NCBI GenBank assembly: GCA_964016885.1
Contig: OZ024741.1
Span: forward strand, 405,294,001-405,358,000
Source of the DNA: Eledone cirrhosa
Taxonomy: Eukaryota
DNA length: 64,000 bases
Direction of reading: 5' to 3'
The notes beneath the pieces were generated by a model, which searched no databases, had not been told where the DNA came from, and saw nothing but the letters and a program-made list of their open reading frames with translations. Shown piece by piece: positions 1 to 64,000 of this stretch (position 1 is the first letter of the stretch; the number at the start of each line of letters is the position of its first letter). Both the position numbers and the translations under genes were made by a program.

Positions 1-3000
1 TGTATGGAGTCATAACTACTGGGGGAGTCATAGGGACACTGTCATAATGTATGTATAGAGTCATAACTCCTGGGGGAGTCATAGGGACACTGTCATAACG
101 TATGTATGGAGTCATAACTACTGGGGGAGTCATAGGGGTACTGTCAATGTATGTATGGAGTCATAACTACTGGGGGAGTCATAGGGACACTGTCATAATG
201 TATGTATGGAGTCATAACTACTGGGGGAGTCATAGGGGCACTGTCAATGTATGTATGGAGTCATAACTACTGAGGGAGTCATAGGGGCACTGTCATAATG
301 TATGTATGGAGTCATAACTACTGGGGAGTCATAGGGGCACTGTCATAATGTATGTATGGAGTCATAACTACTGGGGGAGTCATAGGGGCACTGTCAATGT
401 ATGTATGGAGTCATAACTACTGGGGGAGTCATAGGGACACTGTCATAATGTATGTATGGAGTCATAACTACTGGGGAGTCATAGGGGCACTGTCATAATG
501 TATGTATGGAGTCATAACTACTGGGGGAGTCATAGGGGCACTGTCAATGTATGTATGGAGTCATAACTACTGGGGGAGTCATAGGGACACTGTCATAATG
601 TATGTATGTAGTCATAACTACTGGGGGAGTCATAGGGGCACTGTCATAATGTATGTATGGAGTCATAACTACTGGGGGAGTCATAGGGGCACTGTCAATG
701 TATGTATGGAGTCATAACTACTGGGGGAGTCATAGGGATACTGTCATAATGTATATATGGAGTCATAACTACTGGGGGAGTCATAGGGGCACTGTCATAA
801 TGTATGTATGGAGTCATAACTACTGGGGGAGTCATAGGGACTCTGTCATAATGTATGTATGGAGTCATAACTACTGGGGGAGTCATAGGGGCACTGTCAT
901 AATGTATGTATGGAGTCATAACTACTGGGGAGTCATAGGGGCACTGTCATAATGTATGTATGGAGTCATAACTACTGGGGGAGTCATAGGGACACTGTCA
1001 TAACGTATGTATGGAGTCATAACTACTGGGGGAGTCATAGGGACACTGTCATAATGTATGTATGGAGTCATAACTACTGGGGGAGTCATAGGGGCACTGT
1101 CAATGTATGTATGGAGTCATAACTACTGGGGGAGTCATAGGGACACTGTCATAATGTATGTATGGAGTCATAACTACTGGGGGAGTCATAGGGACACTGT
1201 CATAATGTATGTATGGAGTCATAACTACTGGGGGAGTCATAAGGACACTGTCATAATGTATGTATGGAGTCATAACTACTGAGGAGTCATAGGGACACTG
1301 TCATAATGTATGTATGGAGTCATAACTACTGGGGGAGTCATAGGGACACTGTCATAATGTATGTATGGAGTCATAACTACTGGGGGAGTCATAGGGACAC
1401 TGTCATAATGTATGTATGGAGTCATAACTACTGGGGGAGTCATAGCGGCACTGTCATAATGTATGTATGGAGTCATAGGGGCACTGTCATAATGTATGTA
1501 TGGGGTCATAACTACTGGGGGAGTCATATGACACTGTCATAACGTATGTATGGAGTCATAACTACTGGGGGAGTCATAGGGGCACTGTCAATGTATGTAT
1601 GGAGTCATAACTACTGGGGGAGTCATAGGGGCACTGTCAATGTATGTATGGAGTCATAACTATTGGGGGAGTCATAGGGACACTGTCATAATGTATGTAT
1701 GGAGTCATAACTACTGGGGGAGTCATAGGGACACTGTCATAACGTATGTATGGAGTCATAACTACTGGGGGAGTTATAGGGGTACTGTCAATGTATGTAT
1801 GGAGTCATAACTACTGGGGGAGTCATAGGGACACTGTCATAATGTATGTATGGAGTCATAACTACTGGGGGAGTCATAGGGGCACTGTCAATGTATGTAT
1901 GGAGTCATAACTACTGGGGGAGTCATAGGGGCACTGTCATAATGTATGTATGGAGTCATAACTACTGGGGAGTCATAGGGGCACTGTCATAATGTATGTA
2001 TGGAGTCATAACTACTGGGGGAGTCATAGGGGCACTGTCAATGTATGTATGGAGTCATAACTACTGGGGGAGTCATAGGGACACTGTCATAATGTATGTA
2101 TGGAGTCATAACTACTGGGGAGTGATAGGGGCACTGTCATAATGTATGTATGGAGTCATAACTACTGGGGGAGTCATAGGGGCACTGTCAATGTATGTAT
2201 GGAGTCATAACTACTGGGGGATTCATAGGGACACTGTCATAATGTATGTATGGAGTCATAACTACTGGGGGAGTCATAGGGGCACTGTCAATGTATGTAT
2301 GGAGTCATAACTACTGGGGGAGTCATAGGGACACTGTCATAATGTATATATGGAGTCATAACTACTGGGGGAGTCATAGGGGCACTGTCATAATGTATGT
2401 ATGGAGTCATAACTACTGGGGGAGTCATAGGGACTCTGTCATAATGTATGTATGGAGTCATAACTACTGGGGGAGTCATAGGGGCACTGTCATAATGTAT
2501 GTATGGAATCATAACTACTGGGGAGTCATAGGGGCACTGTCATAATGTATGTATGGAGTCATAACTACTGGGGGAGTCATAGGGACACTGTCATAACGTA
2601 TGTATGGAGTCATAACTACTGGGGGAGTCATAGGGACACTGTCATAATGTATGTATGGAGTCATAACTACTGGGGGAGTCATAGGGGCACTGTCAATGTA
2701 TGTATGGAGTCATAACTACTGGGGGAGTCATAGGGACACTGTCATAATGTATGTATGGAGTCATAACTACTGGGGGAGTCATAGGGACACTGTCATAATG
2801 TATGTATGGAGTCATAACTACTGGGGGAGTCATAAGGACACTGTCATAATGTATGTATGGAGTCATAACTACTGAGGAGTCATAGGGACACTGTCATAAT
2901 GTATGTATGGAGTCATAACTACTGGGGGAGTCATAGGGACACTGTCATAATGTATTTATGGAGTCATAACTACTGGGGGAGTCATAGGGACACTGTCATA

Positions 3001-3226
3001 ATGTATTTATGGAGTCATAACTACTGGGGGAGTCATAGGGACACTGTCATAATGTATGTATGGAGTCATAACTACTGGGGGAGTCATAGGGACACTGTCA
3101 TAATGTATGTATGGAGTCATAACTACTGGGGGAGTCATAGCGGCACTGTCATAATGTATGTATGGAGTCATAGGGACACAGTCATAATGTATGTATGGAG
3201 TCATAGGGACACTGTCATAATGTATG
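1..3226. repeat. Tandem array, 51-bp unit (49/50-bp variants), ~63 copies, open at window start; SINE-derived
   Basis: Unit TGTATGGAGTCATAACTACTGGGGGAGTCATAGGGACACTGTCATAATGTA; variant patterns recur at a 1593-bp offset (ORF-track hits 653/2246 and 1058/2651). Confidence 0.97.
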
Positions 3227-3600
3227 TTTCTTGGACATTTTAAAAACCTGACAGCGCTCATCTCCACTCCAGGTCTGATTACAGTTGAATTCTTCCAAAG
3301 AGAGAGAGAGAGAGAAAGTGCTAGAGTGGAAGTGAGAAAGAGAGTGAGAGAGTGGAAGTGAGAAAGAGAGTGAGAGAGAGAGTGAGAGAGTGAGAGTGAG
3401 AGAGTGCTGGAGAGGAAGTGAGAAAGAGGGCGAGGAAGTGAGAAAAAGAGAGAGGAAGTAAGAAAGAGTTAGGGAGAGTTGACCCGAATACTGGATTGTT
3501 ACTTTGTGTATCGACCTCAAAAGAATAAAATCGAAATTGATCTTGGTAGGATTTGAACTCAAAATGTTGCAGAGCATTCTGACTTTGAGAATTTGTTAGC
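3227..3600 (-). mobile_element. Degenerate tRNA-derived SINE with internal (GA)n-rich tract, continuous with the 51-bp array
   Basis: Matches 34040-34380 (+) and 20190-20505 (-): GGATTTGAACTC B-box complement and CTCCAGG(T/C)CTGA(T/A)TACAG segment. Confidence 0.75.
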
Positions 3601-3964
3601 ACAGGTATAATTAAGGAAATATTACCTGTATTTATCTAACATCTACTCCAGGGGGAAGAACTTATGTCAGTTCCACTTCATAAGATGGAATTGGAACTAA
3701 ACATTGTCCAACGAGGCCTTTCACCTTTCACCCTTTAGCATTTAAACCGGCCATATCCAGCCAGAACTCTGTCATTTCTTTCTGTCCAAACCGACAGTAA
3801 TCGGCTGCTCATACTGATGTTAAGGTATTGTTCTCAAAATAAATAATATCAAAATCTCGTCAATTCAGTATTATGTGAGATAAAGTGTTTTCCATGAAAA
3901 TACAATACTATATATGGAGTAATGTAAATGCAGTAAATTATACAATTGGTCCACATTATTTGTG

Positions 3965-4364: not shown

Positions 4365-5210
4365 GATAAATTACTTGATGTATTCCATATAATTGTTTAT
4401 ACAAAGTCAGAAAACAGCACAGTTCCCATGGCTTTCGGAAACATTTTTTCATGCTCAGAGTTGCTGAAGCATGGAACAAACTACCTGCATCAGTTGTTAG
4501 CTGTCGAGACACTACATCCTTTAAAACCTCCATGGAACAAACTACCTGCATCAGTGTTTAGCTGTCGAGACACTGCATCCTTTAAAACCTCCATGGAACA
4601 AACTACCTGCATCAGTTGTTAGCTGTCGAGACACTACATCCTTTAAAACCTCCATGGAACAAACTACCTGCATCAGTTGTTAGCTGTCGAGACACTGCAT
4701 CCTTTAAAACCTCCATGGAACAAACTACCTGCATCAGTTGTTAGCTGTCGAGACACTGCATCCTTTAAAAACCCCATGGAACAAACTACCTGCATCAGTT
4801 GTTAGCTGTCGAGACACTGCATCCTTTAAAAACCCCATGGAACAAACTACCTGCATCAGTTGTTAGCTGTCGAGACACTACATCCTTTAAAACCCCCATG
4901 GAACAAACTACCTGCATCAGTTGTTAGCTGTCGAGACACTACATCCTTTAAAACCTCCATGGAACAAACTACCTGCATCAGTTGTTAGCTGTCGAGACAC
5001 TGCATCCTTTAAAACCTCCATACTTCCTGACATTCGCCAACACTACACCTGATGTCCCCCCTCCATACACACGCACACATGTATATCATGACGCATACAC
5101 TATTCACTTCCCTGACCTTTGTATATTATTTTATGTACTATACATGCACCTTTGATGAGTTGTAGTGCACCTGAGCACTGTACACAATAATTTCATTATT
5201 ATTATTATTA
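4365..5210 (+). mobile_element. 3' fragment of a CR1/L2-group LINE with an internal 61-bp tandem array
   Basis: From 4436 reads RKHFFMLRVAEAWNKLPASVVSCRDTTSFKTS, the typical ORF2 C-terminus; 3' UTR ends in an (ATT)n tail at ~5195-5210. Confidence 0.75.
4470..5020. repeat. Tandem array, 61-bp unit, ~9 copies
   Basis: Unit CATGGAACAAACTACCTGCATCAGTTGTTAGCTGTCGAGACACT(A/G)CATCCTTTAAAACCTC. Confidence 0.97.
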
Positions 5211-7750: not shown

Positions 7751-8124
7751 TAAAAGGGCAGCATACATGACATTAGCACAGAACCCAGGAGATTGATGTG
7801 GGGAAAGGGAGAAAGAAAGTATAAGATTCATGAGTTATTGCTGACTAGGGGGGACCCCCCCTCCCCATCTCCCAGAGACGTTGTGCACAGCAGAATATGA
7901 TTGCATTCAGGATATGGAAAGGTGGGGGGTGCTGAACTTCTCTTAAAATTGAAAGGATGTGAGATGTTTATTTTTTATGTGGCTGTTTCAAATACCTATG
8001 ACCCCCTGGACTGTTGTACAGACTGACCTTTCGCCCTCATATAGGCTCTGCTGTTAACCACTACTCTGATCTACATTAGTAATCAGTCGGAAATCAATGA
8101 CCATTTGTCTGATTCTAAGCTTTT

Positions 8125-8320
8125 ACTGGTCGCTCTCCGACAGGTTTGCGGTAGTACCCTTGGCAGTGGAGACTTCTGGTGTCCTTGGCTACCTCCCTAC
8201 TCACCACCATAGGCGCTGAGCTGGCCAGCCGCAGATGTGAGCCCCATGAGTTGGAATGGCTTTTCCAGCGCATCTCCCTTGCCGTCCTCCGAGGAAACAC
8301 CTCCATTCTGTCCACCGGGG
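8125..8320 (+). mobile_element. C-terminal fragment of an RLE-type (CRE-like) non-LTR retrotransposon
   Basis: Reads PLAVETSGVLG...IGAELASRRCEPHELEWLFQRISLAVLRGNT, matching the P-x-A-x-E-T-x-G ... FQR-x-S-x-A-x-x-RGN terminus of CRE-clade proteins. Confidence 0.7.
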
Positions 8321-8885
8321 CTGTGGGGAGGCCACCAATATGATTGACTGACTTGTCATGTTTGGAGCTAATACTACTTGCTTACTTTAATGTTTCAATT
8401 GTTTCCTAAAGTCATTCAATCAGAAAGCGCTATAGTTGGGTTGTTAGTAAGTAATAGAAATGTCACCTAACTAACTATAAGATCTCTTGCTTTAACAGCT
8501 TAGAAATATCTAAATTTGCATCACCATCAAACCCACACTAACATTGGTGGAGAATATATGTAAAATAACAACAAAAATTCTTTTTTTTAAAGACTTCCAA
8601 TATATATTTTAAGTGAAGTTTTATGTTTCTCTTCATTCCGCTCCCTATATATTGTTATACAAATAATTGATATATTATAAATTATGACAAAATATTCAGT
8701 ATTTTTTTATCAAAATGTTTATCTTTACATTAATGATCTCAAGGAAAAATTAATATTGGTTTTATTTATTTGTCTAAGATTGATGACGAGAATCGTCTGT
8801 CTTCATGAGACCTTTGGTAAATGGAATAATTGTCTTATGTTGTTTATTACATAACTAAATAGCTCAGCGATTCTCGCTGAATTTA

Positions 8886-10079: not shown

Positions 10080-10323
10080 TGAAGTATTTCCATAGGAAGG
10101 GTAAAGGAAAAGAGAGTGCTCTATGTAGACTACAGAGCTATTAAGTTATGTAATGAACAACATAAAACAATTATTCCATTTACCAAAGGTTTCACGAAGA
10201 CAGACGAACTCGACACAGACATCTGAAATCGCTCATCGATTTCAGATGTCTGTGTAGAGTTCATCTGTCTTCGTGAAACCTTTGGTAAATGGAATAATTG
10301 TTTTATGTTGTTCATTACATAAC
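10080..10323. mobile_element. Penelope-pLTR-like module with 87-bp-arm palindrome (10145-10323), between (TA)n tracts
   Basis: Arms 10145-10231 and 10237-10323, loop CTCAT; same family as 8780-8870 and 14003-14165. Confidence 0.7.
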
Positions 10324-10689
10324 AATATATATATATATATAATTAAATTAAATTAAAAGTAGGATGACGCTTGTATATAAAATAAACACATGAAACAATT
10401 ACAGGGGATAATTTGTGAAGAGTGTAATCATAGTTATGGAGGTAACATATTAAAAATTAACAAGAACCTTGAATATAGATACCTTGCAATAAAGAATAAT
10501 CTTTACCAATTATCCTCTAATTGATTGATGTGTTTATTTTATATACATGCGTCATCCTACTTTTAATTTAATTTAGTATAAATGCTCGGATTTACTACTT
10601 GGAATCTTAGAGCTTATTCTACAGGTGGTATGGCACATGATTCTGATATTCTCAGACATGACATCCTTAATCTAATTTTGGTAATATAT

Positions 10690-11025: not shown

Positions 11026-11728
11026 ATATATATGTATACTCACCAAACATTATACACACACGCAAACGCATGTGCAGAGACAGAGACAAGAATAAATAAT
11101 TAAATAAATAAATAAAATAAAAATGGCGTAGACATTGCAATACAACAGGAGGGAACATAATAGTACCACTGATGATGTTGCAGATGTGCAACAAAAGAAC
11201 TTCGATAGACTATATATATATTTATATCTGTATTTTTAACTGCTGGTCTATCAATGATAAACATTGATTGCCAAATAAATTAACTATGGAAATATAAAAG
11301 ATACAGAAGCGAAAACCAACCAAAGAGTGAGTGTGTTCTGTTATTATTTCTGGCAATATTTTTACAATATGACCCCCCCCCCCCCCCAAGTATAACAATA
11401 TATATATATATGTGTGGTTGGCAGCTGAGAGATAAGAGTACTGAATACCGAAGCAGAGTTCTAATTTATTATGGCTAAATATTCATTTTATTAAGGCTAA
11501 ATAGTGAATGTTGTTACTCTGGAGTTTTGCCTGTTTATCACAGAAAAAATATAGGAAAAACAAGTTGAAAATGTTATTGGAGTCTTTTAGAAGGTTTATT
11601 AACAAAAACTTCACAGTTTTATGATTTTGAAAATTGAAACCAGTAAATTTTTTGTAAATAATTTTTTTAAAGACTCCAATTGCTTTTTCAGTTTCTTTTT
11701 CCTATATATATATATATATATATATATA

Positions 11729-13338
11729 CTTGGAGAAAGCCTTTGACAGAGACCCCGCTCCATTATCTTGTGGGCTCTTAGAAAACTAGGAGTATATAAG
11801 TGGCTTGTGAGAGCTATACAAGCCATGTACAGAGGAGCAGTCAGCAAGATTAGAATTAACAATGAATATAGTGAAGAATTTAGCGTAAAAGTAGGTGTTC
11901 GCCAATGCTCTGTCCTTAGCCCCTCCTGCTTATTATTGCCCTTCAGGCTATAACAGAAGAGTTTAAGACTGGCTGCCCATGGGAACTTCTATATGCAGAT
12001 GATCTAACTCTCATAGCTGAATCTATGGCCGAACTAGAGAAGAAATTCCAAACATGGAAGCATGGCCTAGAATCAAAAGGCCTTAAAGTTAACTTGTCTA
12101 AGACTAAAGTTCTAGTATGTAGAAAGGAAAATAGGGCACAGGTGCCCTCTGGGAAATGGCTGTGCTCAGTGTGTAGGAAAAGAGTAAGTAGAAATTCCAT
12201 TCTATGCCCCAAATGTAAACTATGGGTACATAAAAGATGTAGTGGGATCACAGGCAAGCTATGAAAGAATGTAGGTTTTATATGTGGCCAGTGCTCAGGT
12301 GCAGTAAGTAGCAAGTGCCTACTGGATACTAGTTCCTTCAACTGCCCAGGTGGTTCTATAGACATAGTAGACACTTTCCGTTATCTGGGTGACAAAATCA
12401 GCAGTGGAGGAGAGAGTTCTGAAAGTACAGTAGCCAGAGAAAGAACAGAATGAAAAAAGTTCAGAGAGATAATACCACCATTAGCTGCAAATATTTTCTC
12501 TCTAAAAATGAAAGGCAGATTGTATGATACTTGTATACAAACAGCAATGTTATATGGCAGTGAGACATGGGCCTTGTGTGCAGAGGATCTGCACAAATTG
12601 GAGAGGAACGAAGCATGCATGCTCCGATGGATGTGCAATAGTAATATACACGAATGGCAAAACGTAAATGAACTAAGTGAGAAATTAGGAATAAGATGGA
12701 TCAGATGCTGTTTACTAGAGAGGAGATTGCATTGGTATGGAGATGTGATGCGTATGAAGGACAACAACTGTATAAAAAAGTGCAGAGCGATCAAAATTGA
12801 TGTAAGCTATGGAGTAGGTAGACCCATAAAAACCTGGGATGAGGTGATAAAAACTGACCTTGCACACTTACACCTCTCTAAGACACTGGATCAAGATCTT
12901 TGGTGCTATGCAGTTATACAGAAGACTTGCCTTCGCTTACGTATGAATTTGAACCTACAGTCAGCAGGCACCTCTTAACCCAATATACACCCCACCCTGC
13001 ACCCCCTACTCCATCATCCCACCCCCACCAACCTTTCTCTGTAAAGTTATGTTGGTACCACAGAACATCCAGTTCACACTCTAAAGTGGTCGTGTAGATG
13101 TCACGACAAGAAGCACCCAGTCCACACTATAAAGTGGTTGTGTAGGAGACACGGTAAAAAGGCTCCCAATCCACACTGTGTGGTTGGCGTTAAGAAGGGC
13201 ATCCAGCCATAGAAAATCAGCCAGAAATAGTTCTATACAAGCAAGACACAGTCACCCAACCAATCTTGCCTCAAGTGAGACAAACCCGTCTAACCCATGC
13301 TAGTAAGGAAGATGGACGTTAAACAATGATGATGATGA
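11729..13338 (+). mobile_element. 5'-truncated, degenerate RTE-clade LINE (RT pseudogene, 3' UTR, (GAT)n tail)
   Basis: LEKAFD, VGVRQCSVLSP, LLYADDL, FRYLGD, MLYGSETW, RLHWYGDVMR and GRPIKTW motifs spread over several frames with stops and frameshifts. Confidence 0.92.
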
Positions 13339-13947
13339 TATACACATATATATATATCCAAATATTTGGGGTCCATGGGCAATCCTCTGGCTGAACAGGA
13401 TGGTAAAATAGAGCAGTTACAAGGCATAGGTAAATATCCAAGTTGGAAATACAAAGATTGCCGCTTAAGCGTGGAAAATATAGTTGAAGGAGACGAGAAA
13501 GGCTTAAAGCTGACATGTCAAACTTCCTTTTCTCTTTTCCATATAAAGCGTGAAACTAATAAGACTTTTTGTACATCTGTTTGTTGTCTCCTTGAACTAT
13601 ATATATATATATATAACCTATCACATGAGTAGGGGTGTGGTCCAGGGACCAAGAACACCAGTCTCCTTCTCAGCAAGGAAGATGGAAAAAAATTACCTCT
13701 TAATTTTAAATCTTTAATTTTTAGTTTTTAATTCTTAATAATCCTTTTCAAATTGTAATACTCAACATTTGAGATGAATTTTAATATATCGAAACCGGTA
13801 ATACTTTATATACTTTATAAAACTCTTTTTTAAAAGAATTGTCCCTCTCATTTTTACAATAATGTCACTTTGATGAATCAAAGAAAGGGAAAAAAGAAAA
13901 ACAGGCCCTAAAATATATTTTCAGTACTATTTCCAACTTCACCTTTG

Positions 13948-15275: not shown

Positions 15276-16538
15276 GGGACCAAGAACACCAGAAGTCTCC
15301 ACTACTACAGGGTCTACCACAAACCTATCAGTAGGGATGTGGTCTGGGGACCAAGAACACCAGAAGTCTCCACTATTACAGGGTCTACCACAAACCTATC
15401 AGTAGGGATGTGGTCTGGGGGCCAAGAACACCAGAAGTCTCCACTATTACAGGGTCTACCACAAACCTATCAGTAGGGATGTGGTCTGGGGACCAAGAAC
15501 ACCAGAAGTCTCTACTGCTACAGGGTCTACCACAAACCTATCAGTAGGGATGTGGTCTGGGGACCAAGAACACCAGAAGTCTCTACTGCTACAGGGTCTA
15601 CCACAAACCTATCAGTAGGGATGTGGTCCAGGGGCCAAGAACACCAGAAGTCTCCACTACTACAGGGTCTACCACAAACCTATCAGTAGGGATGTGGTCC
15701 AGGGGCCAAGAACACCAGAAGTCTCCACTACTACAGGGTCTACCACAAACCTATCAGTAGGGATGTGGTCTGGGGACCAAGAACACCAGAAGTCTCCACT
15801 ACTACAGGGTCTATCACAAACCTATCAGTAGAGATGTGGTCTGGGGACCAAGAACACCTGAAGTCTCCACTACTACAGGGTCTACCACAAACCTATCAGT
15901 AGGGATGTGGTCCAGGGGCCAAGAACACCAGAAGTCTCTACTGCTACAGAGTCTACCACAAACCTATCAGTAGAGATGTGGTCCAGGGGCCAAGAACACC
16001 AGAAGTCTCTACTACTACAGGGTCTACCACAAACCTATCAGTAGGGATGTGGTCTGGGGACCAAGAACACCAGAAGTCTCCTCTACTACAGGGTCTACCA
16101 CAAACCTATCAGTAGAGATGTGGTCTGGGGACCAAGAACACCAGAAGTCTCCACTGCTACAGGGTCTACCACAAACCTATCAGTAGAGATGTGGTCTGGG
16201 GACCAAGAACACCAGAAGTCTCCACTGCTACAGGGTCTACCACAAACCTATCAGTAGGGATGTGGTCTGGGGACCAAGAACACCAGAAGTCTCCACTACT
16301 ACAGGGTCTACCACAAACCTATCAGTAGAGATGTGGTCTGGGGACCAAGAACACCAGAAGTCTCCACTACTACAGGGTCTACCACAAACCTATCAGTAGA
16401 GATGTGGTCTGGGGACCAAGAACACCAGAAGTCTCCACTGCTACAGGGTCTACCACAGACCTATCAGTAGGGATGTGGTCTGGGGACCAAGAACACCAGA
16501 AGTCTCCACTGCTACAGGGTCTACCACAAACCTATCAG
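15276..16538. repeat. Tandem array, 71-bp unit, ~18 copies
   Basis: Unit GGGACCAAGAACACCAGAAGTCTCCACTACTACAGGGTCTACCACAAACCTATCAGTAGGGATGTGGTCTG. Confidence 0.97.
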
Positions 16539-17798
16539 TGAGTGGCTGATACATGGACAGTTGGCCCTCTACAATTTCCTGGCTAGCTTATCATGATGAA
16601 CATTTTATGTAACCTGACTACCAAGTGGGAAACTATTTCACTATATCAAGGCTATCTTATATTTCATGAGCTGGATTTATGAGTCACTTTCAGTAAATTC
16701 AATTGAATTATCTATAGTCCAAAGAATTGTTCTCTTGAGGCTTATCACAACAACAACAACAACAACAACATTCCACAGAGACTCCATCATAGTAGATGTT
16801 CTAATAACCTAGAAATGGATGAGATAGTAACAGGCCTTACTTGAGAGTGGGGCAAACAACAATTGTGTACAATTTTGAGAAGGTCACATCATCTCAATTC
16901 TAATTCTTCATTTATATAACTTTAAACTATATTATAGAGGAAGACCACGAAAACATGGGCGGAGGTGGTGAGAGCAGACCTCAGATCGCTGAAGCTCACG
17001 GTGGAGATGATGAAGGACCATGACAAGTGAAGAGATCCTGTGCTGAATAGGATCCGTCCCACCCTTGCAAGCAAGGAAAAGCGGACGTAAAATGATGATG
17101 ATATTTAATCTTATATATTTAAGTATTATATATATTATTTGTATCTATTTTCATTCTGTAAGAATCATAAATAATTTGTAATGTTATTTATACAACGGTG
17201 AATAAATATAAGAATGTTCTTTAAATACAAAAAAATAAAAAAAACTTTAAAAGGTTTATCAATCCCTGCTTTATATTCACTGTCAATCCAGTCGATTCCT
17301 TTGTCAGGTTTCTATGATGATGATGATATATGAATTTTTGTGATTCTGTCACAACACGTGAAGAGAGAGGTGTAGTTTGACTGCCCCATACTACTCCTCT
17401 TTCTTTATGTCTGCTGCCTGTGTGAATGTGTATGTGTGTAAAAGGAAGGAAGGGGTCGTGAAAAAGCTATAGCAAAATAGTGGCTGGTGTTCCATTTGCT
17501 ATGCTGTGTATGTCTGAGTGTATATTTTTATAATGAATGAATTTGTAAGTGTGTGTGTCTTTGCATGTTATATTTATATACTTATACATATAAATGTATG
17601 CATATGCACATACGCACATACATATACAGATACTCCTCAGCATGTTGAAAAAAATCTTAGTATATATATATTTATATATATATATACTTGAAAGCAAGGT
17701 TTTTTAATATGTCCCTAACACAGTAAAGTTATAAATAATTGTAAATAAACCTTCTTAAAGACTCCAATTGCATTTTCAACTTCTTTTTCCTATATATA

Positions 17799-19088
17799 CG
17801 AGCGGGGTTCAAAAAGTTCGCAGAATTTTTCAGAAAATAATCTATTTTTCAAAAAATATGATTTACCTTCAATTTATTTTTCTACATAGTTGCCATCCAG
17901 GTCAATACACTTCACAAGGCGATGCTTCCAGCTTCGTAAGCCATCTCTAAAGAAAGTTGAAGGCCTTGTTCGAAGCTATGTGTTAGCAGTGTTTTTAGCT
18001 TCTTCAACACCACTAAAACGGGTCCCTTTTAGCATTTCTTTGAGTTTTGGAAAGAGGAAAAAGTCTGATGGGGCTAAATCTGGACTATAAGGCGGGTGAG
18101 GAAGCACTTCCCATCGAAATTCTCGAAGAACCTCTTTTGCAACCTGCGCAGAATGCGCTGGTGCATTGTCATGGTGAAACAAGATCCCACCATGAAGTTT
18201 CCCTTTTCATTTCTTTATTAATGTCTCTTTCAGCTTCCTTAAAACATTTGCATAGTAAGCTCCTGTCACAGTTCTTTGACCTTCAAGATAATCTATTAGT
18301 ATCACCCCATCTGAATCCCAGAAAATGGTGGCCATCACTTTTTGATCCGACTTTTAAGATTTGAACTTGATTGGCCTCGATGATCCACGTGGAAGCCACT
18401 GTTTTGACTGCTGTTTGGATTCAGGATCATACTGGTAGATCTAGGTTTCATCTCCGGTGATGATTCTGGTCAGGAAATGCTCTTCATCAACTTCAATTTT
18501 GTTTAATATCGCCAAAGACAGATCACTTCGAAGAATCAGCTGATCAGGGCGCAACACTTTTGGGACCCATCGCGCTGAAAGCTTGCTTAGTCCCAAATTA
18601 TCGTGCAGAATTGAATTTGCCGAACCATATGAAATGTCTATGGACTTAGCTAACTGATTAACTGTTATTCTTCGATCTTCTTCAATTAAAGTCTGTGCAG
18701 CCTCAACGTTTTGGTCATTTTTTGATGTTCCTGGTCTTCCACTGCGATGGTCGTCTTTCCCTTGTTTGAATCGCTGAATCTACTTGTAGACAGCAGTTTT
18801 CTTTAGAGCAGTAGTACCGTAAACTTTAACTAAATCCGCCATAATCTGTGTCCCTTTCCATTTGAGTTTCACCAGAAACTTGATATTCGATCTTATCTCA
18901 AAATAACTATTTTCCGTTGTTCCCAAAAGAGGTTTTTTAAAGTGTGTCAGTACAGCACAATAGTCCGCGCATGACTGACTGCAAGTGACTAATAGCAAGG
19001 TAAACACCCAGTGACAATGTTCTGACATGTTTAATATTGTTTTAACCTGATTTTTTTCTTGCTACGATAAAATTCCGCGAATTTTTTT
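17799..19088 (-). mobile_element. Mariner (DD34D) transposon with inactivated transposase and truncated right TIR
   Basis: HHDNAPAH, LPHPPYSPDLAPSDFFLFPKLK, SARWVPK and ITGDET motifs plus N-terminal RSNIKFLVK; left end TA|CGAGCGGGGTTCAAAAAGTTCGCAGAATTTT, right end retains only AAAATTCCGCGAATTTTT. Confidence 0.93.
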
Positions 19089-20505: not shown

Positions 20506-21352
20506 CTGCAAATATAGAGTAATTTAAGTGCTACAGGGTTCAGTCTATGTCTATGGTGACACCACTTAACTGTTGTCATTTGTTTATATCCCTTACTTAG
20601 CAGTTCTACAAATAGAGATTGATAAAATAAGTACCAAACTTAAAAATAAATACTGAGGGTGATATGATCAGCCAAACCCCTGAGGTAGTGCCTCAGCATC
20701 ACCATAGTTCAATGACTAGCTGAGTTATTATTGGTCAACAGACTGACCACAGCAGAGGAAATAGCCTAAATATGGTTGTTGTTGTTATTGGTCAAAAGAC
20801 TGACCACAGCTTTAGCAGGGGAAATTACATGTTATTTTTCCATGCTCGCATAGGTTGGACAGGTCCTTTTTAGTACAGTATCGCTCCACTCACTGCATTC
20901 CTATCATCTCCTCTCTGAGTCTCAACAATTTCAGATCAGTTCTCACCACCTCCATCTAGGTCTTCCTTGGTCTACCACTTCTGTGACTTCCTTCTACTGG
21001 GATTTCCTGAAGACACATACATGAATGCAGACACAGATCTTAGTCATGGCAACTGTGAAGAATATACTTCAATAAAGAGGTGTAATAAGATTAAAACATG
21101 TCTATTGTTGGATTTATAGATGAGATCCACTCCCATCCGCAGTCTATTTTCCCCCAAAAAGTCACACAGGCTTGGTTTTATGGATAGAAAGTTAATTTCA
21201 CAACCATTTGGTTTAGGGGTTAATTCCATTGAGTATTTCTCTGACAATATATCTTCTACTATAGTCTCAAGCTGAACAATATTACTGTATTACACAGGGC
21301 CAGACCTTTACCTGCTGAGGCCCTAAGCTTTATGAAATTTGAGGCCCTTCTC

Positions 21353-21783
21353 TTAACCCTTTTACGACTGTATTTCTAATGAAATATACTCTATTTCAAT
21401 TAATTAAGGAAGAGTTTTGAGAAATTTAATGAAATTATTAATCATTAGTGCCAAGAAATGCCAGTAAAAGGAGGCCACAGTAGAGGTAAACCAAGAAAGA
21501 CCTGGGCAGAGGTTGTGAGAGCTGACCTCAAATCACTGAAACTCAAGAGGCGATGACAGGATCGCAGCATGTTGAGAGATGCTGTGCTGAGAAGCATAAA
21601 GCATAAAAAAGCAGATGAAAAAATGATGACGATGATTTCATTACTAAGATAGTAACATAATGTAAGGTTCTTATATAAAATAATGTTGGAAGATTTTAAT
21701 TTAAATTGGAAACCTTTAAAATGGGTGGTTTTATTTCATAGAACCAGAGCTGGTTTTAGCCAGGCTGGTAACTAAAGTGTTAA
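21353..21783. mobile_element. piggyBac-like MITE containing an RTE 3' fragment (~21465-21635)
   Basis: TTAACCCTTT ... AAAGTGTTAA ends; RGKPRKTW-coding RTE end inside. Confidence 0.55.
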
Positions 21784-21809
21784 AAATTTTGAGTAAAAGA
21801 ATTAAAATT

Positions 21810-21960
21810 AATTGTTTCTACTTTTGGCACAAGGCCAGCTATTACTCAGTGTATTACTGGTACTTTATTTTATCGACCCCGTAAGGATGAAAGGCAAAGT
21901 TAACCTCGGCGGGATTTGAACTCAGAATGGCAAAGGCCGTAACTCAATGCGTCCGACCCT
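21810..21960 (-). mobile_element. tRNA-derived SINE
   Basis: Reverse complement of the 3965-4145 family. Confidence 0.85.
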
Positions 21961-22089
21961 ATAATGATATATGATTATTATTTATTAATTATTACAAAAC
22001 TAAATTAATTACAAAATGTTTCTTTTAACTAATTAATTGATATATTCCATTTTCCACATAGAGAAATAAAAATATATTTTTAAAAATAA

Positions 22090-22395
22090 GGTCCCTGAGG
22101 GTGTGTGACCCTAAGCTATAGCTTATATAAAAGTCCAACACTGGCTACCCTGAGGCCCCCAAGAATGTGTGACCATAAGCTATAGCTTATATGTAAGTTC
22201 AGCACTGGCTACCCTGAGGCCCCCAAGGGTGTGTGACCCTAAGTTATAGCTTACAGGTAAGTCCAACACTGGCTACCCTGAGGCCTCCAAGAGTGTGTGA
22301 CCCTAAGCTATAGCTTATAGGTAAGTCCAACACTGGCTACCTTGAGGCCCCCAAGGGTGTGTGACCCTAAGTTATAGCTTACAGGTAAGTCCACC
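22090..22395. repeat. Tandem array, 64-bp unit, ~5 copies
   Basis: CTGGCTACC recurs at 22141, 22205, 22269 and 22333; unit contains the palindrome TAAGCTATAGCTTA. Confidence 0.93.
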
Positions 22396-22744
22396 AATGA
22401 TATTACAAGTGGAAGATATAGTAGTGTGTGTATACCATTCCTTGTGATATTTGCTACTGTAATACTTAATTTTTCTGTAAATTACTAGCGGGGCCGGTGG
22501 TGTTGGTGATGGTAGATGCTTTGGTTCTCCACTCAAGTTATACTTGAAAGTATCTTATAGGCAGGCTGTAATGAAGCATGTCTTCTTTTAAACCATCAAT
22601 TAATAATGAAGGTTTACCACACAATTAAAACTAAATACAAGTCCTGCTCTAGAATTACATAGCTTACATACAAAGTTGAGGCTGTGTGAGTCTTCAATTA
22701 TATTAATTAGTGGATAAATAGCAATAAATTGGCAGGACTGGTAC

Positions 22745-24878: not shown

Positions 24879-25462
24879 AGAGAAAATTGAGGTTGGTAAT
24901 GGCACATGGAATATATAAGAGACAGAATACTTTTTTGTGAAAAAACATAATTTTATAAGGTAAGGAAATAATAAAGGGTATACAAAATGACCGGTTTCGA
25001 TGGGTCTGCAAAAGCCATTTTTCAAATGTTGATTAATATTAAGAAAAATTAATAATACGAAGAGTTAAAATTTGAGATTTGAAAATTCAAGTATAAAATT
25101 CATTGTGGGATTTCATAGCAGTTTTCATCTAGGTAGCAACAACAGGTTGACTGCTGTGTCCCTTTTACTACCAGAAAGGGACACAGCAGTCAACCTGTTG
25201 TTGCTACCTAGATGAAAACTGCTATGAAATCCCACAATGAATTTTATACTTGAATTTTCAAATCTCAAATTTTAACTCTTCGTATTATTAATTTTTCTTA
25301 ATATTAATCAACATTTGAAAAGATGGCTTTTGCAGACCCATCGAAACCGGTCATTTTGTATACCCTTTATTATTTCCTTACCTTATAAAATTATGTTTTT
25401 TCACAAAAAAGTATTCTGTCTCTTATATATTCCATGTGCCATTACCAACCTCAATTTTCTCT
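24879..25462. repeat. Near-perfect palindrome, ~287-bp arms and 9-nt loop, with a hammerhead-like motif in each arm
   Basis: Arms 24879-25165 and 25175-25462, loop TACTACCAG; CAACAT-TTGAAAA-GATGG...CCATC-GAAA-CCGG-TC-ATTTTG at ~25310-25358. Confidence 0.93.
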
Positions 25463-27026: not shown

Positions 27027-28106
27027 TTATTCATCACGATTGAAATTTATGATTTCTTCGTAAATAAGACCAAGCCATTCGGCTTGGTTCAGTTCCATAT
27101 CGGAATATCTGTCAGAAAAATGAGGTGCATGCATTAAATCCCTCTGTTTGTAATGATCTGTAAAGAAAGGATGTTTCATTGCCTCAACTACCGATATTCG
27201 ATTATCAACATCTAAGTTAAATATTTGGTCCAAAATATTGAGTGTATCTTTATCATGAGTTTTGAAAAACTCTGAGAAATCTTGTTTAACAAATGTTCCG
27301 AAATGTTTGATCATATTAATAGCATCATCACAAGTAAATTTTTTAAGCATTTCATAATCTGGTGTTCCGACTAAATAGAGTATCTGCTTTATTTGGTCGG
27401 TGAAATTATGCCCTCTTATTACAGCTCGGTTGGTTAACATCTCGCCTATGATGCAACCCACAGACCACACATCGGCTGTCTGGTAGTAATTCTCCCAGTT
27501 AAGAATGATTTCAGGTGCTCTGTACCATCTTGTCTGTACGTAACCTGTCATTTTAAGACCGACCTGTCGGGCCAGTCCAAAATCCATAATTTTGATACAG
27601 TCATCATCAGTAACACCGATGTTACTGGGTTTTAAGTCACGATGGATGACACCAGCAGAGTGAATGTAGTGAAGTCCACAAAATATTTGGTAAACGAGTG
27701 ACTTGATCCGAGGTAATTGAAGTTTATCGCTTTCCAAAAGAATTTTCAAATCTTTCGGATAGTATGTTGAAACAAGGTAGAGGTTTTCCAAATCATTTTT
27801 ACATACAGCTGTTGTAAATATATCAAGCAAATCGATAACGTTTTTGTGATGCATGTGTTTCAATAAACAGATTTCGCGGTACGTCCGTTTAGTATCCATT
27901 AATGAGGAGAAAGGCCTGCATAATTTCTTTATGGCAACCTTAGAGTTCGTAAGTTTGTTATGTGCCATACAAACATTACTAAAACTTCCACTACCAATAT
28001 ATTCTAGAGAGCTGTAACGGTCCGGGTGAATCCATTTAATAGCAAACTCCTCAGTAAGTTCGTAGGATGGTGGGATGTAATCCATCTTTGTCGAAGCTTT
28101 TCTCAT
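27027..28106 (-). CDS. Single-exon p38-family MAP kinase (MAPK14-like, divergent), 359 aa from the first ATG
   Basis: Uninterrupted ORF with VAIKKL, KRTYREI, HRDLKPSNI, DFGLAR, the p38-diagnostic TGY activation motif and TRWYRAPE. The ORF-track start at 28163 is GTG; first ATG is at 28106, alternative ATG at 28085. Confidence 0.95.
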   Translation of the reverse strand: MRKASTKMDYIPPSYELTEEFAIKWIHPDRYSSLEYIGSGSFSNVCMAHNKLTNSKVAIKKLCRPFSSLMDTKRTYREICLLKHMHHKNVIDLLDIFTTAVCKNDLENLYLVSTYYPKDLKILLESDKLQLPRIKSLVYQIFCGLHYIHSAGVIHRDLKPSNIGVTDDDCIKIMDFGLARQVGLKMTGYVQTRWYRAPEIILNWENYYQTADVWSVGCIIGEMLTNRAVIRGHNFTDQIKQILYLVGTPDYEMLKKFTCDDAINMIKHFGTFVKQDFSEFFKTHDKDTLNILDQIFNLDVDNRISVVEAMKHPFFTDHYKQRDLMHAPHFSDRYSDMELNQAEWLGLIYEEIINFNRDE

Positions 28107-29163
28107 AGTAACTTCTTTTTTACTGTATTTGATATATTTTAAAATTAAATAATCTATATACACATAGATAACATTTCAAATTGCTCACAATTCTTTCAGA
28201 ATAATATTACAAATATAATGTCGTTGATAAATGCAGCTAACAAATACAACCAACCATCGCCAGGAACCTCACAAAAACAAGGCACCAAAACACATGAGCG
28301 AGAGGAAGTAAGTTAGTGATGTTTAACTAACAGGGTTGGTTTATAGTTACAAATATCACAGATTTCTTGTAAAGGGAGATTACATTCACGGAAAAGACAG
28401 TGATGTATTTTTTATTGGTCCAGCAGTTATTACAATAACTGACAAGCACGTTATCAGAACAATTAACTTCCCCCAGAGTTCCACGAAACTAAAAGAGTTA
28501 AATAAATTGATAGATAGAGAGATATGTTTCTTTATTTGCCACAAGGACACACAAGAAAAGGGGACAATAGAAAGACATACAGTCGTGTACAAAAGTTTTA
28601 ATATAACAATCGAAATCCCCAATAGGGGGGAGGCGTTACAAATGGGTTGTTTTATACCCCGTAGATAGAACAACCCTCAACTCCAGGAGCGTGTTGTGCA
28701 AGTGCTCCTTTCTTCTTTTCACTCTCTTATTCAACCTACAGGTTTATATATAAAGAAGGCCCAATCACTCGGGCTATTCTCGCCACATTCACCCACCTTT
28801 CAGTAAATAGATAGATAGATAAATAGATAGATAAGTATAAATAAATAAAAGTTAAAAACTAATTTAAAAAAAGTGATATTAATTAATTTTTCAAGATATT
28901 GACAGTTAATTTATTAAATAACCTGATTATCTAAAAAACTTTCTCTGCTAGAAACATGAAAAGAAATAGAGGAAAGTAAAAGTTTGTCTACTATAATGAC
29001 CTAGATTTTCAGCTATAATTAGTTGATGGGTGAAATAGTTGACTGTGACCAACTCGTTTGTTAACTCCACCCACCACTGCTAGGAGGGGGAGGGACTAAT
29101 AATAAACTATTGTATAATGTTTCTTTTTCCTTCTCTTCAGAAATAAGGTTTCTAATAGTAAAT

Positions 29164-29195
<32 letters not shown>

Positions 29196-29197
<2 letters not shown>

Positions 29198-29845
29198 CAT
29201 AGGTTAAGAATAACGTCCTCGAAATTGAAACTAGGTTTTCTGACAAGTGAATGTGTTTTTTTTTTTTTTTACAATGAAATTTACGATACACTCTGTTTAT
29301 TTACAACAGGTCTCTATAGTGATATGGTGTTAATTAGTATTGCGTGTGTGATTATTTTCTCTTATATATATATATGTGTGGGTGTGTATATGTGTGTATA
29401 TATATGTGTCTGTATGTATATATATATGTGTGTTTGTATATATGTGTTTGTGTCATCATCATCGTTTAGATGTTTTTGTAATATCTTGCCAAAGTTGGCA
29501 CCAACTATAAACAAATTAAGGCCGGGTCATAAGAAGGACAGAATGATAAGGGATTTGGGTAAAAACATCTAAACGATGATGATGACACAAACACACATAT
29601 ATATACAAACACACATATATATATACATACAGACACACATATATACACACATATACACACCCACACATATATATATAAGAGAAAATAATCACACACGCAA
29701 TACTAATTAACACCATATCACTATAGAGACCTGTTGTAAATAAACAGAGTGTATCGTAAATTTCATTGTAAAAAAAAAAAAAAAACACATTCACTTGTCA
29801 GAAAACCTAGTTTCAATTTCGAGGACGTTATTCTTAACCTATGCC
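29196..29845. repeat. Long inverted duplication, ~283-bp arms and 83-bp spacer
   Basis: 29196-29477 is the reverse complement of 29561-29845; flanked by (TA)n. Confidence 0.93.
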
Positions 29846-29910
29846 TATATATATTTCGTTTCTGAATTTGTTTAGCAAGATTCTTTATCTGAAAACGTGT
29901 GTTGAAACCG

Positions 29911-30005
29911 ATATTGTTATACTTTGGGAGGGTCATGTTGCCAATAAGAAACAACAATCGCAGGTGCGTGTGTTTCTTATTGGCAACATGACCCTCCCAA
30001 AGTAT

Positions 30006-30012
<7 letters not shown>
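29911..30012. repeat. Hairpin with ~42-bp arms next to (TA)n
   Basis: ATTGTTATACTTTGGGAGGGTCATGTTGCCAATAAGAAACA ... TGTTTCTTATTGGCAACATGACCCTCCCAAAGTATAACAAT. Confidence 0.9.
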
Positions 30013-30058
<46 letters not shown>

Positions 30059-30329
30059 CAGTTCTAGTCCTGTAGAATAATAATAGATTTGAAGAGTAGA
30101 ATCCAAAGAGGGCTCGATAAGGATAAATATATATAAAAAATATAAGAATCCTAGAGCAAATATTTATTAAAATAACAAATTAAAGTTTAAGCAAAGAATC
30201 GCTGCTTTCACCCTTAACGGGAACTTCTGAAACTAAAAAAAAATCAATCTGCGTTCACAGATTGATTTTTTTTTAGTTTCAGAAGATCCCGTTAAGGTCT
30301 GTTATTTTAATATATATATATAGGAAAAA

Positions 30330-30432: not shown

Positions 30433-30756
30433 TTCCTTATATGGGAAGATTGTAGTTGTCAAGAGGATTGGTTAAAATTGGTTGTAAACACAAATAAGTC
30501 TAACATGGCATTTGGTGGGAGGTAGGGGTGGCTGAACTTGCCTGTAGAACAATAGGGGAGTGAGTGGAGCGGTCAAGCGTTGAAAGTGATATGTATACAG
30601 CAGATTCTAAGGATAGTGTATGAAGTGGAGGAGGGAGGTTATAGAATAGGTAAATCGAATGTGAGTAGGAGACAATAAAAGATAATAGAAATAAATAAAA
30701 TAATATATAAAATTAGATAGTGAGAAATGAATAAAAAAAATCACAATGCTATCTTA

Positions 30757-31717
30757 GGCGCTCACGGCTCTCTGGCAGGCGGACCCGGCTGTCAGTGGAG
30801 AATCCACCTCGACATTCTATAGAGGGCTGGTGGTTAGCAGGTGCGACGACGCCCTCGGAGAAGCCCTAGGCATGGAGGAAAACGAACTGGCCAACCTGTT
30901 CGGTAGGACATTCAGCCCGGGACCCATGGATACTTCCAGAGGTCCCTGGCCTGGCAGTGCTACCGAGGGCCTCTGCCCGTTCGAGAAAGGCTCTACAGAC
31001 ACGGGCGCCCGGGTAGGGACCTCTCGAAAAAGATCTGTCCGAGATGCGTGTGCGACGAGGAAACCGTTGCACACGCATTGGTACACTGTTCGGGCATTGC
31101 CGATCTGTGGGGCTATGTCGAACAACTGCTGTCAAGGGTGGGACCGATCCGGTTGACCACCGAGTCTACTGTAACGATCAAGCCGCCTCCCCCCTTCAAA
31201 AACGAAGGAGAAGCGGTGTTTCTGTGCGTAATAGCCATGGCGAAAGAGGTTGTATGGTGGACGCGTCTGAAAGGACTGAGGTCAGACACCTTTCTGTCTG
31301 GCCAACAACTGGTCCGTTTTTTCCGATATCATTTCGGAAGAAGGATCAGGATGGAGAGAGAGGTGCTGCACCCCAGCCGTTTTTATGAAAGATGGGTGAA
31401 AGTGGCGAGAATGGCCCGTGTGAATGGGCCTTCACTCTACATCAGACTATAGGTGAGGAAGATGAAAGATCAAGGGAGCACCCCTCTCTGTGCTCCTGAG
31501 GAGAAGGGTTGCACACCTTTTTTCGGGGGTGTGTGCGACCCCCCAAGGCGCCTCCTCCCTATTGAGGATTTTGTTATTAAATTTATTTTTGTTATATTTT
31601 ATTTTATTTTTATATCTTGTTATTGCTTCCCCCTTATTGAGGACGCCTTGTTATGTAAACTCCCCTCATTGTACTTGTCCCACTTTTTGATGCCCTGGTG
31701 GCAAATAAAAAGAAAGT
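30757..31717 (+). mobile_element. 5'-truncated Tx1/L1-clade LINE (zf-RVT C-terminus and 3' UTR), TSD TATCTTA
   Basis: LAWQCYRGPLPVRE, ICPRC..DEETVAHALVHC...LW; stop at 31452; AATAAA; TATCTTA at 30750-30756 and 31718-31724. Confidence 0.85.
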
Positions 31718-33710: not shown

Positions 33711-34037
33711 AAACCCCATAACTTCTATATATCGTCTAGTCGGTATCTGGAGATACCGACTAGCCATGCTGAAATACTATAAAATAGCTTATGAAATAGG
33801 GTGAAGTCCCTTAAAAGACTGAAAAATGAGTTACCATCGGCCGCTATGAAGAAATGTCTCCTACATACGGTCTCGCCGATATCTGGAAGATATGAGGATC
33901 AATTGTTCATAGCAGCCGATAGTAACCTGTCTTTAAGGGTCTTCACCCAATTTTATAACCCATTTTATAGCATCACCGTTCGTGAACACACCATTCTATA
34001 TATTCACTTTATATTCTCAGCACTTAACTGTCTTAGT

Positions 34038-34450
34038 AGGTGGTGAATTGTGAGAGTTGTTAGAACGTCGGATAGAAAACTTTGTAATTCCAGCTCTCTG
34101 CTCTCCAAGTTCAAATCCCGCCAAAGTCAACTTTGCCTTTCATCCATTCGTGGTCGATAAGAAAATGTACCAGTTAAGTACTGGGGTTGATTCTTTCTCT
34201 ATATCTCTTTCTCACTTCCTTTCTCTCAATCTCTCTAACCTTCTCTGGAAGAAATCTACTGTATTCAGACCTGGAGAGAAGATGGGCTCTGCCAGGTTTA
34301 AAAGATGCCCTAGAAACGCCATATTTCAATACAGCGTCCCTACGACTCTTCGGGAGTTACCGGTCCACACCATACCATCGTCCTCAGTATTTTATTTTAT
34401 TGAACTCAGATGGAAAAAAGTTGATCTTGGATGAATTTAAACAGAGATTA
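34038..34450 (+). mobile_element. tRNA-derived SINE, long form
   Basis: GGTGGTGAATTG head, AGTTCAAATCCC, TTTGCCTTTCATCC core, CT-rich linker. Confidence 0.8.
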
Positions 34451-34829: not shown

Positions 34830-36290
34830 ATGATTATATGACATCGATTGCCAAGTCAGCTGACCAGAAAGTTGGTTCGATCTTTCGTATTGTGCAAAAA
34901 AATTCTTCATGCCTAAAATATCTTCTATCTTCTATCTTTTCCGCCCGGGACCAATGGACAACTTCCAAAAGTCTCTGGCCTGGCAGTGCTACCGGGGAGC
35001 GCTACCAGTTCGAGACGAGCTCTACAGACACGGGCGCCCGGGTAGGGACCCATCGAAAAAGATCTGTCCGAGATGCGTGCGCGACGAGGAAACCGCCGCA
35101 CACGCATTTGTACACTGCCCGGGCGTTACCGACCTGTGGGGCTATGTAGAACGACTATTGTCGCGGGTGGGACCAATCCAGTTGACCACTGAGTCTATTG
35201 TCATGATCAAACCACCACCCTCCTTCAAAAAAGAGGGAGAGGCGGTTTTCCTATGTGTTATGGCTATGGTGAAAGAGGTTATATGGTGGACGAGGTTAAA
35301 AGGGCTGAGGTCAGACACCTTTCTCGAGCAACTGATTCGTTTTTTCACATATCATTTTGGAAGAAGAATCAGGATGGAGAGAGAGGTGCTGTACCCCAGC
35401 AAATTTTATAAAAGGTGGGTGAATGTGGCAAAGATGGCCCGAATGGTTGGGCCTTCTCTCTATATAAGCCTGTAGGTTGAGGAAGAGAGGAAGAGAGGAA
35501 GGGAGTACTCACTCTTGGTGCGCCTGGAGATGAGGGTTTTACATTTTTTCGGGGTGTGTACAACCCCTGTGTAACACCTCCCCCCTATTGGGGATTTCAA
35601 TTGTTATTTGTTATTGTATTAATAGTTTTATTTTCATATACCTGTATGTAAACTCCCCATTTGTATTTGTCCCCTTCTTTTGTGCCCTTGTGGCTAATAA
35701 AGAAATTTATCTTCTATCTTTATATCTCTACCATTTGTATTAGTATTGAGTACTGTTGTCACATCTAGTCAGGTGGTTCTGTTGTGGAACTTGAGTTTAA
35801 ATAAGATCTAAAGAAGACAGAAGCTGATATAATAAGTCAGGACCAACATTATTGGTCGTGACTTATTATGTCAGTTTCTATCACTATCACATCGTTGTAA
35901 TGTTCCCTCATTGCCTTATATCTTTATAACTCTACCATACGTTCATGTATTGAGTACTGCTGTCACTTCTAGTCTGGTGATTCTGTTGTGGAACTTGAAA
36001 GTTTAGAGAAGATCTAAAGAAGAATTATCAACATTATTGGTTCTGACTTATGTCGGTTTCAACACGGAATGCTGATTCTCTTTACCTTTTTTTTAATAAA
36101 TATTTTCATGAAAATTATTCTGATGAGCTTTCCTCTTTCTTGTCTCAGTTCACAAGTTTAAACACACCAGACTAGCAACTAGGTCTCACCTATTTACAGT
36201 TGAAGTTCCTAAATGTAATGATAGATTCTCTTCTGACAGTTTCTTCCCTCACATCTCACCTATGTAAATCTCTTCTGCCTGTTTCTTCCC
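34830..36290 (+). mobile_element. Degenerate CR1/L2-group LINE ORF2 3' part, split by a Tx1/L1 insertion, partly duplicated, running into the 44-bp satellite
   Basis: SIAKSADQKVGSIFR, then after the insertion YLYISTICISIEYCCHI*SG (repeated at ~35920-35975), SLSHRCNV, KYFHENYSDELS, TRLATRSHLFTVEVPKCN, DSFFP. Confidence 0.8.
34940..35707 (+). mobile_element. Second 5'-truncated Tx1/L1-clade LINE, TSD TATCTTCTATCTTT
   Basis: Protein closely similar to 30900-31452 (FQKSLAWQCYRGALPVRD...CPRC...H...C); direct repeats at 34926-34939 and 35708-35721. Confidence 0.87.
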
Positions 36291-63800: not shown

Positions 63801-64000
63801 TTTTCTTTTAGTTTCTTCCCTCTCACATCTCACATATGTCACTCTCTTCTCCTAGTTTCTTCCCTCTCACATGTCACGTATGTAACTACCTTCTTCTAGT
63901 TTCTTCCCTCTCACATCTCACATATGTAATTCTCTTCTCCTAGTTTCTTCCCTCTCACACCTCACACATGTAACTCTCTTCTTCTAGTTTCTTCCCTCTC
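36228..64000. repeat. Satellite array, 44-bp pyrimidine-rich monomer, ~630 copies, open at window end
   Basis: Monomer CTCACATCTCAC(C/A)TATGTAACTCTCTTCT(C/T)CTAGTTTCTTCCCT (CCTATG at 36961 and 37005); kb-scale block duplications of variant monomers. Confidence 0.99.

Follow-up and report, generated by a model that had tools for sequence, protein, structure and literature searches.

The 64,000-nucleotide stretch of the Eledone cirrhosa genome analyzed here (the window; C2:405,294,001–405,358,000) lies on a contig of 416 Mb, about 11 Mb from its end, in an assembly of 3.0 Gb, and contains five tandem arrays, each apparently built from a mobile element. This raises the question of whether a process peculiar to the locus converts element fragments into satellites, or whether the arrays reached it from elsewhere. 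We consider it rather probable that four of the five arrived as ready seeds, in a chromosome end that is generally rich in arrays, following a scheme of birth, spread, and growth. The evidence for each step is given below.

The arrays and their parent elements

All five arrays were confirmed by TRF. The window contains the following arrays, parent sequences, and other element remnants:

1–3227 (TRF), minus strand: 51-bp array that also contains some 33-bp units and derives from the 3′ part of a dispersed SINE-like repeat
3228–3600, minus strand: remainder of that SINE-like parent, directly adjoining the array
4400–5205, plus strand: 5′-truncated 3′ end of an APE-type LINE, which houses the 61-bp array
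4470–5021 (TRF, 9.0 copies): 61-bp array, with CATG at both unit ends and the shared 45A mark in its first unit
8003–8330, plus strand: C-terminus of a putative RLE-type LINE, an unamplified relative of the 71-bp parent
13615–13661, minus strand: partial unit of the 71-bp family, of the 76-bp type
15276–16575, minus strand: 71-bp array with a piece of its parent (TRF 15276–16539, 17.8 copies; about 35 bp of the parent extend rightward)
21295–22399, plus strand: putative hAT-like MITE broken up by later insertions, with its 5′ end at 21295
22101–22393 (TRF, 4.6 copies): 64-bp array, the 3′ terminal segment of the MITE including its TIR
34034–34378, plus strand: copy of the SINE-like repeat that gave rise to the 51-bp unit, here unamplified
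36014–36226, plus strand: ORF2 C-terminal part of a second APE-type LINE, which runs into the 44-bp array
36227–64000, plus strand: 44-bp satellite (TRF 36291–64000, 635 copies), which continues beyond the window
11714–13345, 17790–19050, 30700–31720, and 34930–35715: other element remnants, namely one LINE piece that matches RT, a piece that we take to be mariner-like (its only match, to an HTH, is weak), and two LINE ends of the zf-RVT type

Sequence comparisons support the original prediction that all five arrays are amplified fragments of mobile elements, and each appears to derive from a dispersed element. Every unit matches unamplified copies dispersed in the genome, with a mean best local identity of 78% for the 51-bp unit (12/12 copies), 95% for the 61-bp unit (12/12), 84% for the 71-bp unit (13/13), 82% for the 64-bp unit (11/11), and 82% for the 44-bp unit (17/17). 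The source sequences were expected either next to the arrays or unamplified in the window, and this is indeed where they lie: the 61-bp array has contiguous parent sequence on either side and each of the other four arrays on one side, and unamplified matches are present at 34320–34375 for the 51-bp unit (E 2.6e-4) and at 8139–8189 and 13625–13661 for the 71-bp unit. The arrays vary internally, have higher-order periods, and recur at many loci, and an assembly artefact was therefore rejected as their source.

A Pfam search with the five parent peptides gave no match. The predicted origin of the 61- and 44-bp units in the C-terminal coding sequence of LINE ORF2 is borne out by matches to proteins with RT and APE domains. 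The 61-bp parent is the C-terminus of a protein with a reverse transcriptase and an APE endonuclease, that is, of an APE-type LINE (188-aa frame of one copy 57% identical to P0001, which carries PF00078, PF14529, and PF03372; E 1e-61). The 44-bp parent is 51–52% identical to P0011 and P0012, which carry RT and APE domains; three of its ten homologs carry RT, two of these also APE, and the Atlas neighbours of its peptide are unnamed mollusc clusters. A pairwise comparison between the C-termini of the two parent LINEs was not significant (E 0.07), and we presume only from the C-terminal motif that both belong to the CR1/L2 clade.

The 64-bp unit, the weakest case of the prediction, was likewise traced to the terminus of a DNA element. 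Its parent is an element of about 290 bp that has terminal inverted repeats and lacks an ORF. An 8-bp TSD, which is a feature of hAT elements, matches at 6 or more of 8 positions in 5/9 copies and at 8/8 in the copy L295. We describe the parent as a hAT-like MITE, with the unit formed by its 3′ end including the TIR.

Two of the proposed labels stood in part. The 51-bp unit does come from a dispersed repeat, a short, high-copy sequence with 723 first-look candidates, but its designation as a SINE has no database support, as an Rfam search returned two chance-level rows and no tRNA. Such short repeats presumably resemble octopus SINEs. For the 71-bp unit, a C-terminal endonuclease origin is supported by motifs of the RLE type, but the CRE label has no support from databases: Pfam, PDB, and a homolog search gave no match, and no linked RT domain, for this parent, and Atlas matches stayed below 0.9. 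In translations of two frameshifted natural copies, read by eye, a cysteine/histidine knuckle, RH, a PD core, and KX2KY follow one another before the C-terminus. With the motif order of RLE LINEs as given in the consulted part of PMC5678591 for reference, these motifs suggest that the parent is the C-terminus of an RLE-type LINE. The 71-bp unit is collinear in the dispersed element at other loci.

Copy numbers were first estimated at about 5, 9, 18, more than 60, and more than 600; TRF gives 4.6, 9.0, 17.8, and 635 for four of the arrays, and two of the arrays are longer than the window shows. The 51-bp array starts about 2.37 kb to the left of the window and spans 5,594 bp in total (about 110 units). 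The 44-bp array extends over 118 kb (about 2,700 units) and ends at C2:405,448,488, where no LINE 3′ part was found; it has higher-order periods of 2.6, 8.7, and 16.6 kb.

Probable movement of 61-bp arrays between LINE copies

The 61-bp family comprises both single and arrayed copies of its LINE. Of 29 parent copies selected by their 3′ UTR, 8 have several units and 16 a single one, and in 5 the unit is truncated; of 29 selected by upstream ORF2, 1 has two units, 25 are single, and 3 lack the unit. Loci were taken from the 40 best-ranking candidates of each search and were not drawn at random. Single copies carry a subfamily mark within the unit in 33/41 cases. Duplication in place would put such a mark into every unit, but this was seen in 0/30 arrays, 15 of which are mosaic, and in 0/9 of the arrays that had not been found through their own units (p=1e-5). 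In some arrays the resident unit is even split, with foreign units between its parts; L013 has the left mark of the resident in unit 1, the right mark in unit 5, the last, and three unmarked units between them. These patterns suggest that arrays are probably transferred from one LINE copy to another through ectopic conversion, and at least once an array moved together with the LINE itself. The latter is indicated by L013, L015, and L138, which share a 3′ deletion and array marks and differ in their 5′ ends, and in which the array therefore moved with its LINE.

The 45A mark is found in the first unit of 17/30 arrays, in the last unit of none, and in 1/41 singles, a first-unit count that is inflated because 22/30 arrays were retrieved by a query holding the units of the window itself. 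Among unbiased arrays with a 5′ end, 45A occupies the first unit in 0/7 and 14C takes its place in three. The 45A-first arrays sit on at least six different 3′ backgrounds, and their 5′ and 3′ flank sites are in phase in 15/16 cases, the sole exception being the array of the window. Resident copies that contain a foreign tract while their two flanks stay in phase were seen in the 61-bp family only, and some of the cases share ancestry. The 27A mark was absent from the last unit of all five arrays of that background, and the correlation of 5′ and 3′ flank distances did not separate singles from arrays (0.24 in both).

The arrays also have a characteristic position. Of the LINE copies within 20 Mb of a chromosome end, 9/22 are multi-unit, as against 0/27 of those lying deeper inside (p=0.0002; the count leaves out one unplaced copy, and the cut was picked after the first set had been seen). 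A rank test that needs no cut gave p=0.0013, with one chromosome length assumed. Similarly, 0/29 placed array loci fall in the interiors of C1–C4, compared with 13/39 parent copies (p=0.0003), and the 61-bp satellite is present in 3/40 distal or small-chromosome samples (described below).

These marks and junctions would be accounted for if a seed travels with its element to other loci and, in the 61-bp family, is also copied into resident single-unit LINE copies, probably by out-of-register ectopic gene conversion. In such a transfer, a broken resident copy would invade an arrayed paralog at its first unit, copy several units, and re-anneal out of register; RNA or circular donors may also take part. 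It may well be, although we would not go so far as to call it probable, that this LINE-born minisatellite behaves as an infectious array, which copies itself into single-unit parent LINEs across subfamilies, but does so only on small chromosomes or close to chromosome ends, spares nearly all of ORF2 and can therefore also ride its LINE, and seeds satellites of many kilobases. If so, the thousands of parent LINE copies would form a genome-wide reporter of ectopic recombination.

A competing explanation, which we regard as unlikely although it is the strongest of the rivals, dispenses with transfer into resident copies: masters with two or more units would transpose in the style of LTR12, SVA, or DTC84, mosaics would be made within the masters, and interior arrays would contract or be lost. 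The joint movement in L013, L015, and L138 fits this scheme, as do two-unit copies in a fixed order (L139, L142, and L155), the shared junctions of the 64- and 76-bp families, and the coding capacity of an array-bearing copy, in which the 188-aa ORF2 end stays open and the duplication alters only the last ORF2 residues. The scheme is at odds with the absence of multi-unit copies and array loci from chromosome interiors, where parent copies are found, and with the occurrence of one first-unit mark on at least six 3′ backgrounds, which means that repeated exchange is needed even among masters.

Transfer of the kind proposed here has partial precedents, as it is already known from the consulted parts of PMC7403614 and PMC4384637 that satellites can insert themselves into other repeats and that TE copies can convert one another. 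In Drosophila, Rsp-like repeats inserted into 1.688 clusters, so that new arrays likewise arose inside existing repeats, and SDSA-type interlocus conversion or eccDNA was proposed for their spread (Sproul et al, 2020; PMC7403614). There, the target was an unrelated satellite reached via microhomology, whereas in the present case copies of the parent LINE offer their homologous single unit as the target. Non-allelic gene conversion of ISX similarly spread a variant horizontally across the insertion sites of a TE family (Ellison & Bachtrog, 2015; PMC4384637), but that variant consists of two point changes under selection, whereas the tandem array considered here shows no sign of a function. Searches of an open-access library returned no account of arrays passing between subfamilies of their parent LINE. 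How a new satellite reaches many loci is a question on which the consulted part of PMC7403614 leaves conversion and eccDNA undecided. In the 61-bp LINE, subfamilies carry marks, single copies occur next to arrayed ones, and position has a sharp effect, which makes retrotransposition, conversion, and repeated birth separable by counting.

Several loci of this family have further features. About 170 kb from the copy in the window, the opposite strand carries a further 61-bp array with at least 130 units (L290, C2:405,466,001–405,474,000). Ten near-identical loci at C20:3.57–4.84 Mb and at C27:14.37 and 14.95 Mb contain a 61-bp array beside a 54-bp array; those on C20 are spaced about 100–450 kb apart, and the loci together represent a large segmental repeat. 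In another parent copy, L113, a different segment of about 41 bp is duplicated directly 3′ of the unit.

Shared junctions and independent births

The remaining families differ in how far their arrays share an origin. Among 29 copies of the 64-bp parent selected by their 5′ end, 12 are single, 3 are multi-unit, and no 3′ end was found for 14; the junction between units is identical at 14/15 loci. In the 71-bp family, at least 16/20 fetched array loci have a 76-bp period, and the junctions form a graded series in which the shorter junction of the window occurs beside a longer one in two other arrays. The array of the window is a shortened version of this family, whose 76-bp form occurs genome-wide. 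Flank-selected 71-bp parents (n=29) include 19 single copies, 8 truncated copies, and 2 with different duplications (2/21 informative parents), and all copies of a second set, read by eye, are single (24/24). L193 and L194 are counted as independent births. Flank or unit similarity among arrays of this older family is no tighter than among singles, and the family gave no conversion signal; some of its arrays lie in chromosome interiors. Two in-frame variants, L175 (78/60 bp) and L158 (72 bp), form repetitive open frames of 544 and 221 aa, which could be miscalled as genes.

Other flank-selected copies of the 44-bp parent are single in 17/19 cases. Among five 44-bp arrays examined elsewhere, those at C2:411.75 Mb and on C211 have derived flank and unit variants in common with the array of the window, and the one on C1165 consists of a derived unit type. 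The array on C26 has ancestral units and flanks and looks like an independent birth. The region C2:411.75–411.77 Mb, where two units matched, was considered as a segmental duplicate of the window and rejected, since the alignment consists of shared repeats only. At C211:701,100–702,400, a copy of the parent LINE carries a second array beside the 44-bp array, with a 77-bp unit from its own 3′ UTR. For the 51-bp unit, all fetched parent copies are single (12/12), and array-type matches were found at the window locus only, with 40/723 candidates scored.

In the proposed scheme, birth would consist in the rare duplication of a segment of 44–76 bp between short repeats at its ends, guided by microhomology. 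The ends of the 44-bp unit carry a 12-bp imperfect repeat with 1–3 mismatches (3 copies shown), and the 61-bp unit is flanked by two CATG. If slippage at the same microhomology recurred at many loci, each array could instead have been born in place. For the set of arrays as a whole we consider this improbable: the resident mark predicted in all units is missing throughout the 61-bp arrays tested, and junctions that are not templated are common to many loci. The data contradict birth in place in the 61-, 64-, and 76-bp families. For the 51-bp array, known at a single locus, it is the best account, and the ancestral state of the C26 array and the differing duplications among 71-bp parents also speak for it.

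That arrays can derive from TEs, be carried by elements, and contain position-fixed variants is already established in the consulted parts of PMC3389668, PMC9659126, and PMC3879986. Human minisatellites include multi-locus tandem repeats and the internal repeats of LTR12 and L1PA (Ahmed & Liang, 2012; PMC3389668). As here, they come from TE segments, some with flanking short direct repeats, and some are carried by elements and expanded locally. In the human genome, according to the consulted part of that study, 23% are TE-derived, mostly with two units and without genomic hotspots, whereas the present arrays reach 118 kb and concentrate at ends and on small chromosomes. The DTC84 MITE of the clam Donax is a further mollusc element with a short array and position-fixed variants (Satovic & Plohl, 2013; PMC3879986), but it has internal repeats and an AA target duplication, whereas the 64-bp unit includes the 3′ TIR and its element an 8-bp TSD; a position-fixed variant occurs here in a LINE. 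Chicken HinfI/CR1 and a cetacean L1 satellite similarly have monomers from LINE ORF2 or 3′ ends (PMC9659126). Compared with these LINE-derived satellites, units here measure 44–76 bp and are still collinear in hundreds of parent copies.

Array density along the chromosomes

The original prediction took five element-derived arrays in one window as a sign of a general local process. As a background, we analyzed sixty 10-kb stretches at fixed positions, 20 each from distal regions (ends of C1–C4), small chromosomes, and interiors (200 kb per class), counting arrays with a unit of 30–130 bp and at least 3 copies. Distal samples contained 15 such arrays covering 63 kb, and small-chromosome samples 25 covering 29 kb; the single interior row proved to have a 16-bp unit, which leaves no true 30–130-bp unit in 200 kb. 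Complex-array DNA thus makes up about 31% of large-chromosome ends and almost none of the interiors. This contrast, for which searches of an open-access library gave no earlier description, is a basic feature of this 3-Gb genome. At 5 arrays per 64 kb, the window matches the distal rate (4.8), and its density is therefore ordinary for a chromosome end.

Nor does the origin of the units set the window apart. When distinct monomers were compared with a masked library of unselected DNA, 14/35 background monomers matched a dispersed repeat, compared with 160/300 distal and 168/300 small-chromosome controls (328/600; p=0.12). The TE-derived share of arrays is thus no higher than that of random DNA, an outcome that the original prediction had itself named as speaking against it. 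The five units of the window scored only 3/5, which shows that the test under-detects diverged arrays; a modest TE enrichment may remain compatible with these counts, as the control is less sensitive for such arrays. At least 57% of the non-tandem DNA of the window is dispersed repeat, and 201/290 GC-matched controls gave a match; on these lower-bound repeat shares the chance of five of five is 0.06–0.16. Mobile elements would thus be the source of the arrays because they form most of the DNA, not because they are favored; TE-derived satellites are well known, and five of five in the window is to be expected.

The suggestion that the five arrays represent successive stages in satellite birth did not hold up either. 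Copy numbers of about 110, 9, 18, 5, and 2,700 are unrelated to the respective parent identities of 78, 95, 84, 82, and 82%, so the arrays do not form one series, and four of the five units recur as arrays at many loci with shared junctions or marks, so that here too a single local succession is excluded. A local process confined to the window, for which the TE origin of all five units and the second large 61-bp array about 170 kb away might be cited, is accordingly very improbable, given the background-like density and TE share, the multi-locus families, and the lack of a relation between copy number and divergence. The observed positions are consistent with the last step of the birth, spread, and growth scheme, in which unequal exchange would enlarge the seeds in place, chiefly on small chromosomes and close to chromosome ends, where more recombination presumably takes place.

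The window also contains an intronless open frame of 382 aa (27027–28175, minus strand) that encodes a complete protein kinase domain (Pfam E 2.5e-58), presumably p38-like by its TGY motif and possibly a retrocopy. Seven fold-back palindromes lie at 24879–25462, 29187–29854, 10145–10323, 10344–10575, 11549–11707, 29911–30013, and 30212–30297, several of them with (TA)n runs at their borders. A further 54 palindromes, up to 5.4 kb long, were counted in the 60 fixed samples, both in interiors and at ends.
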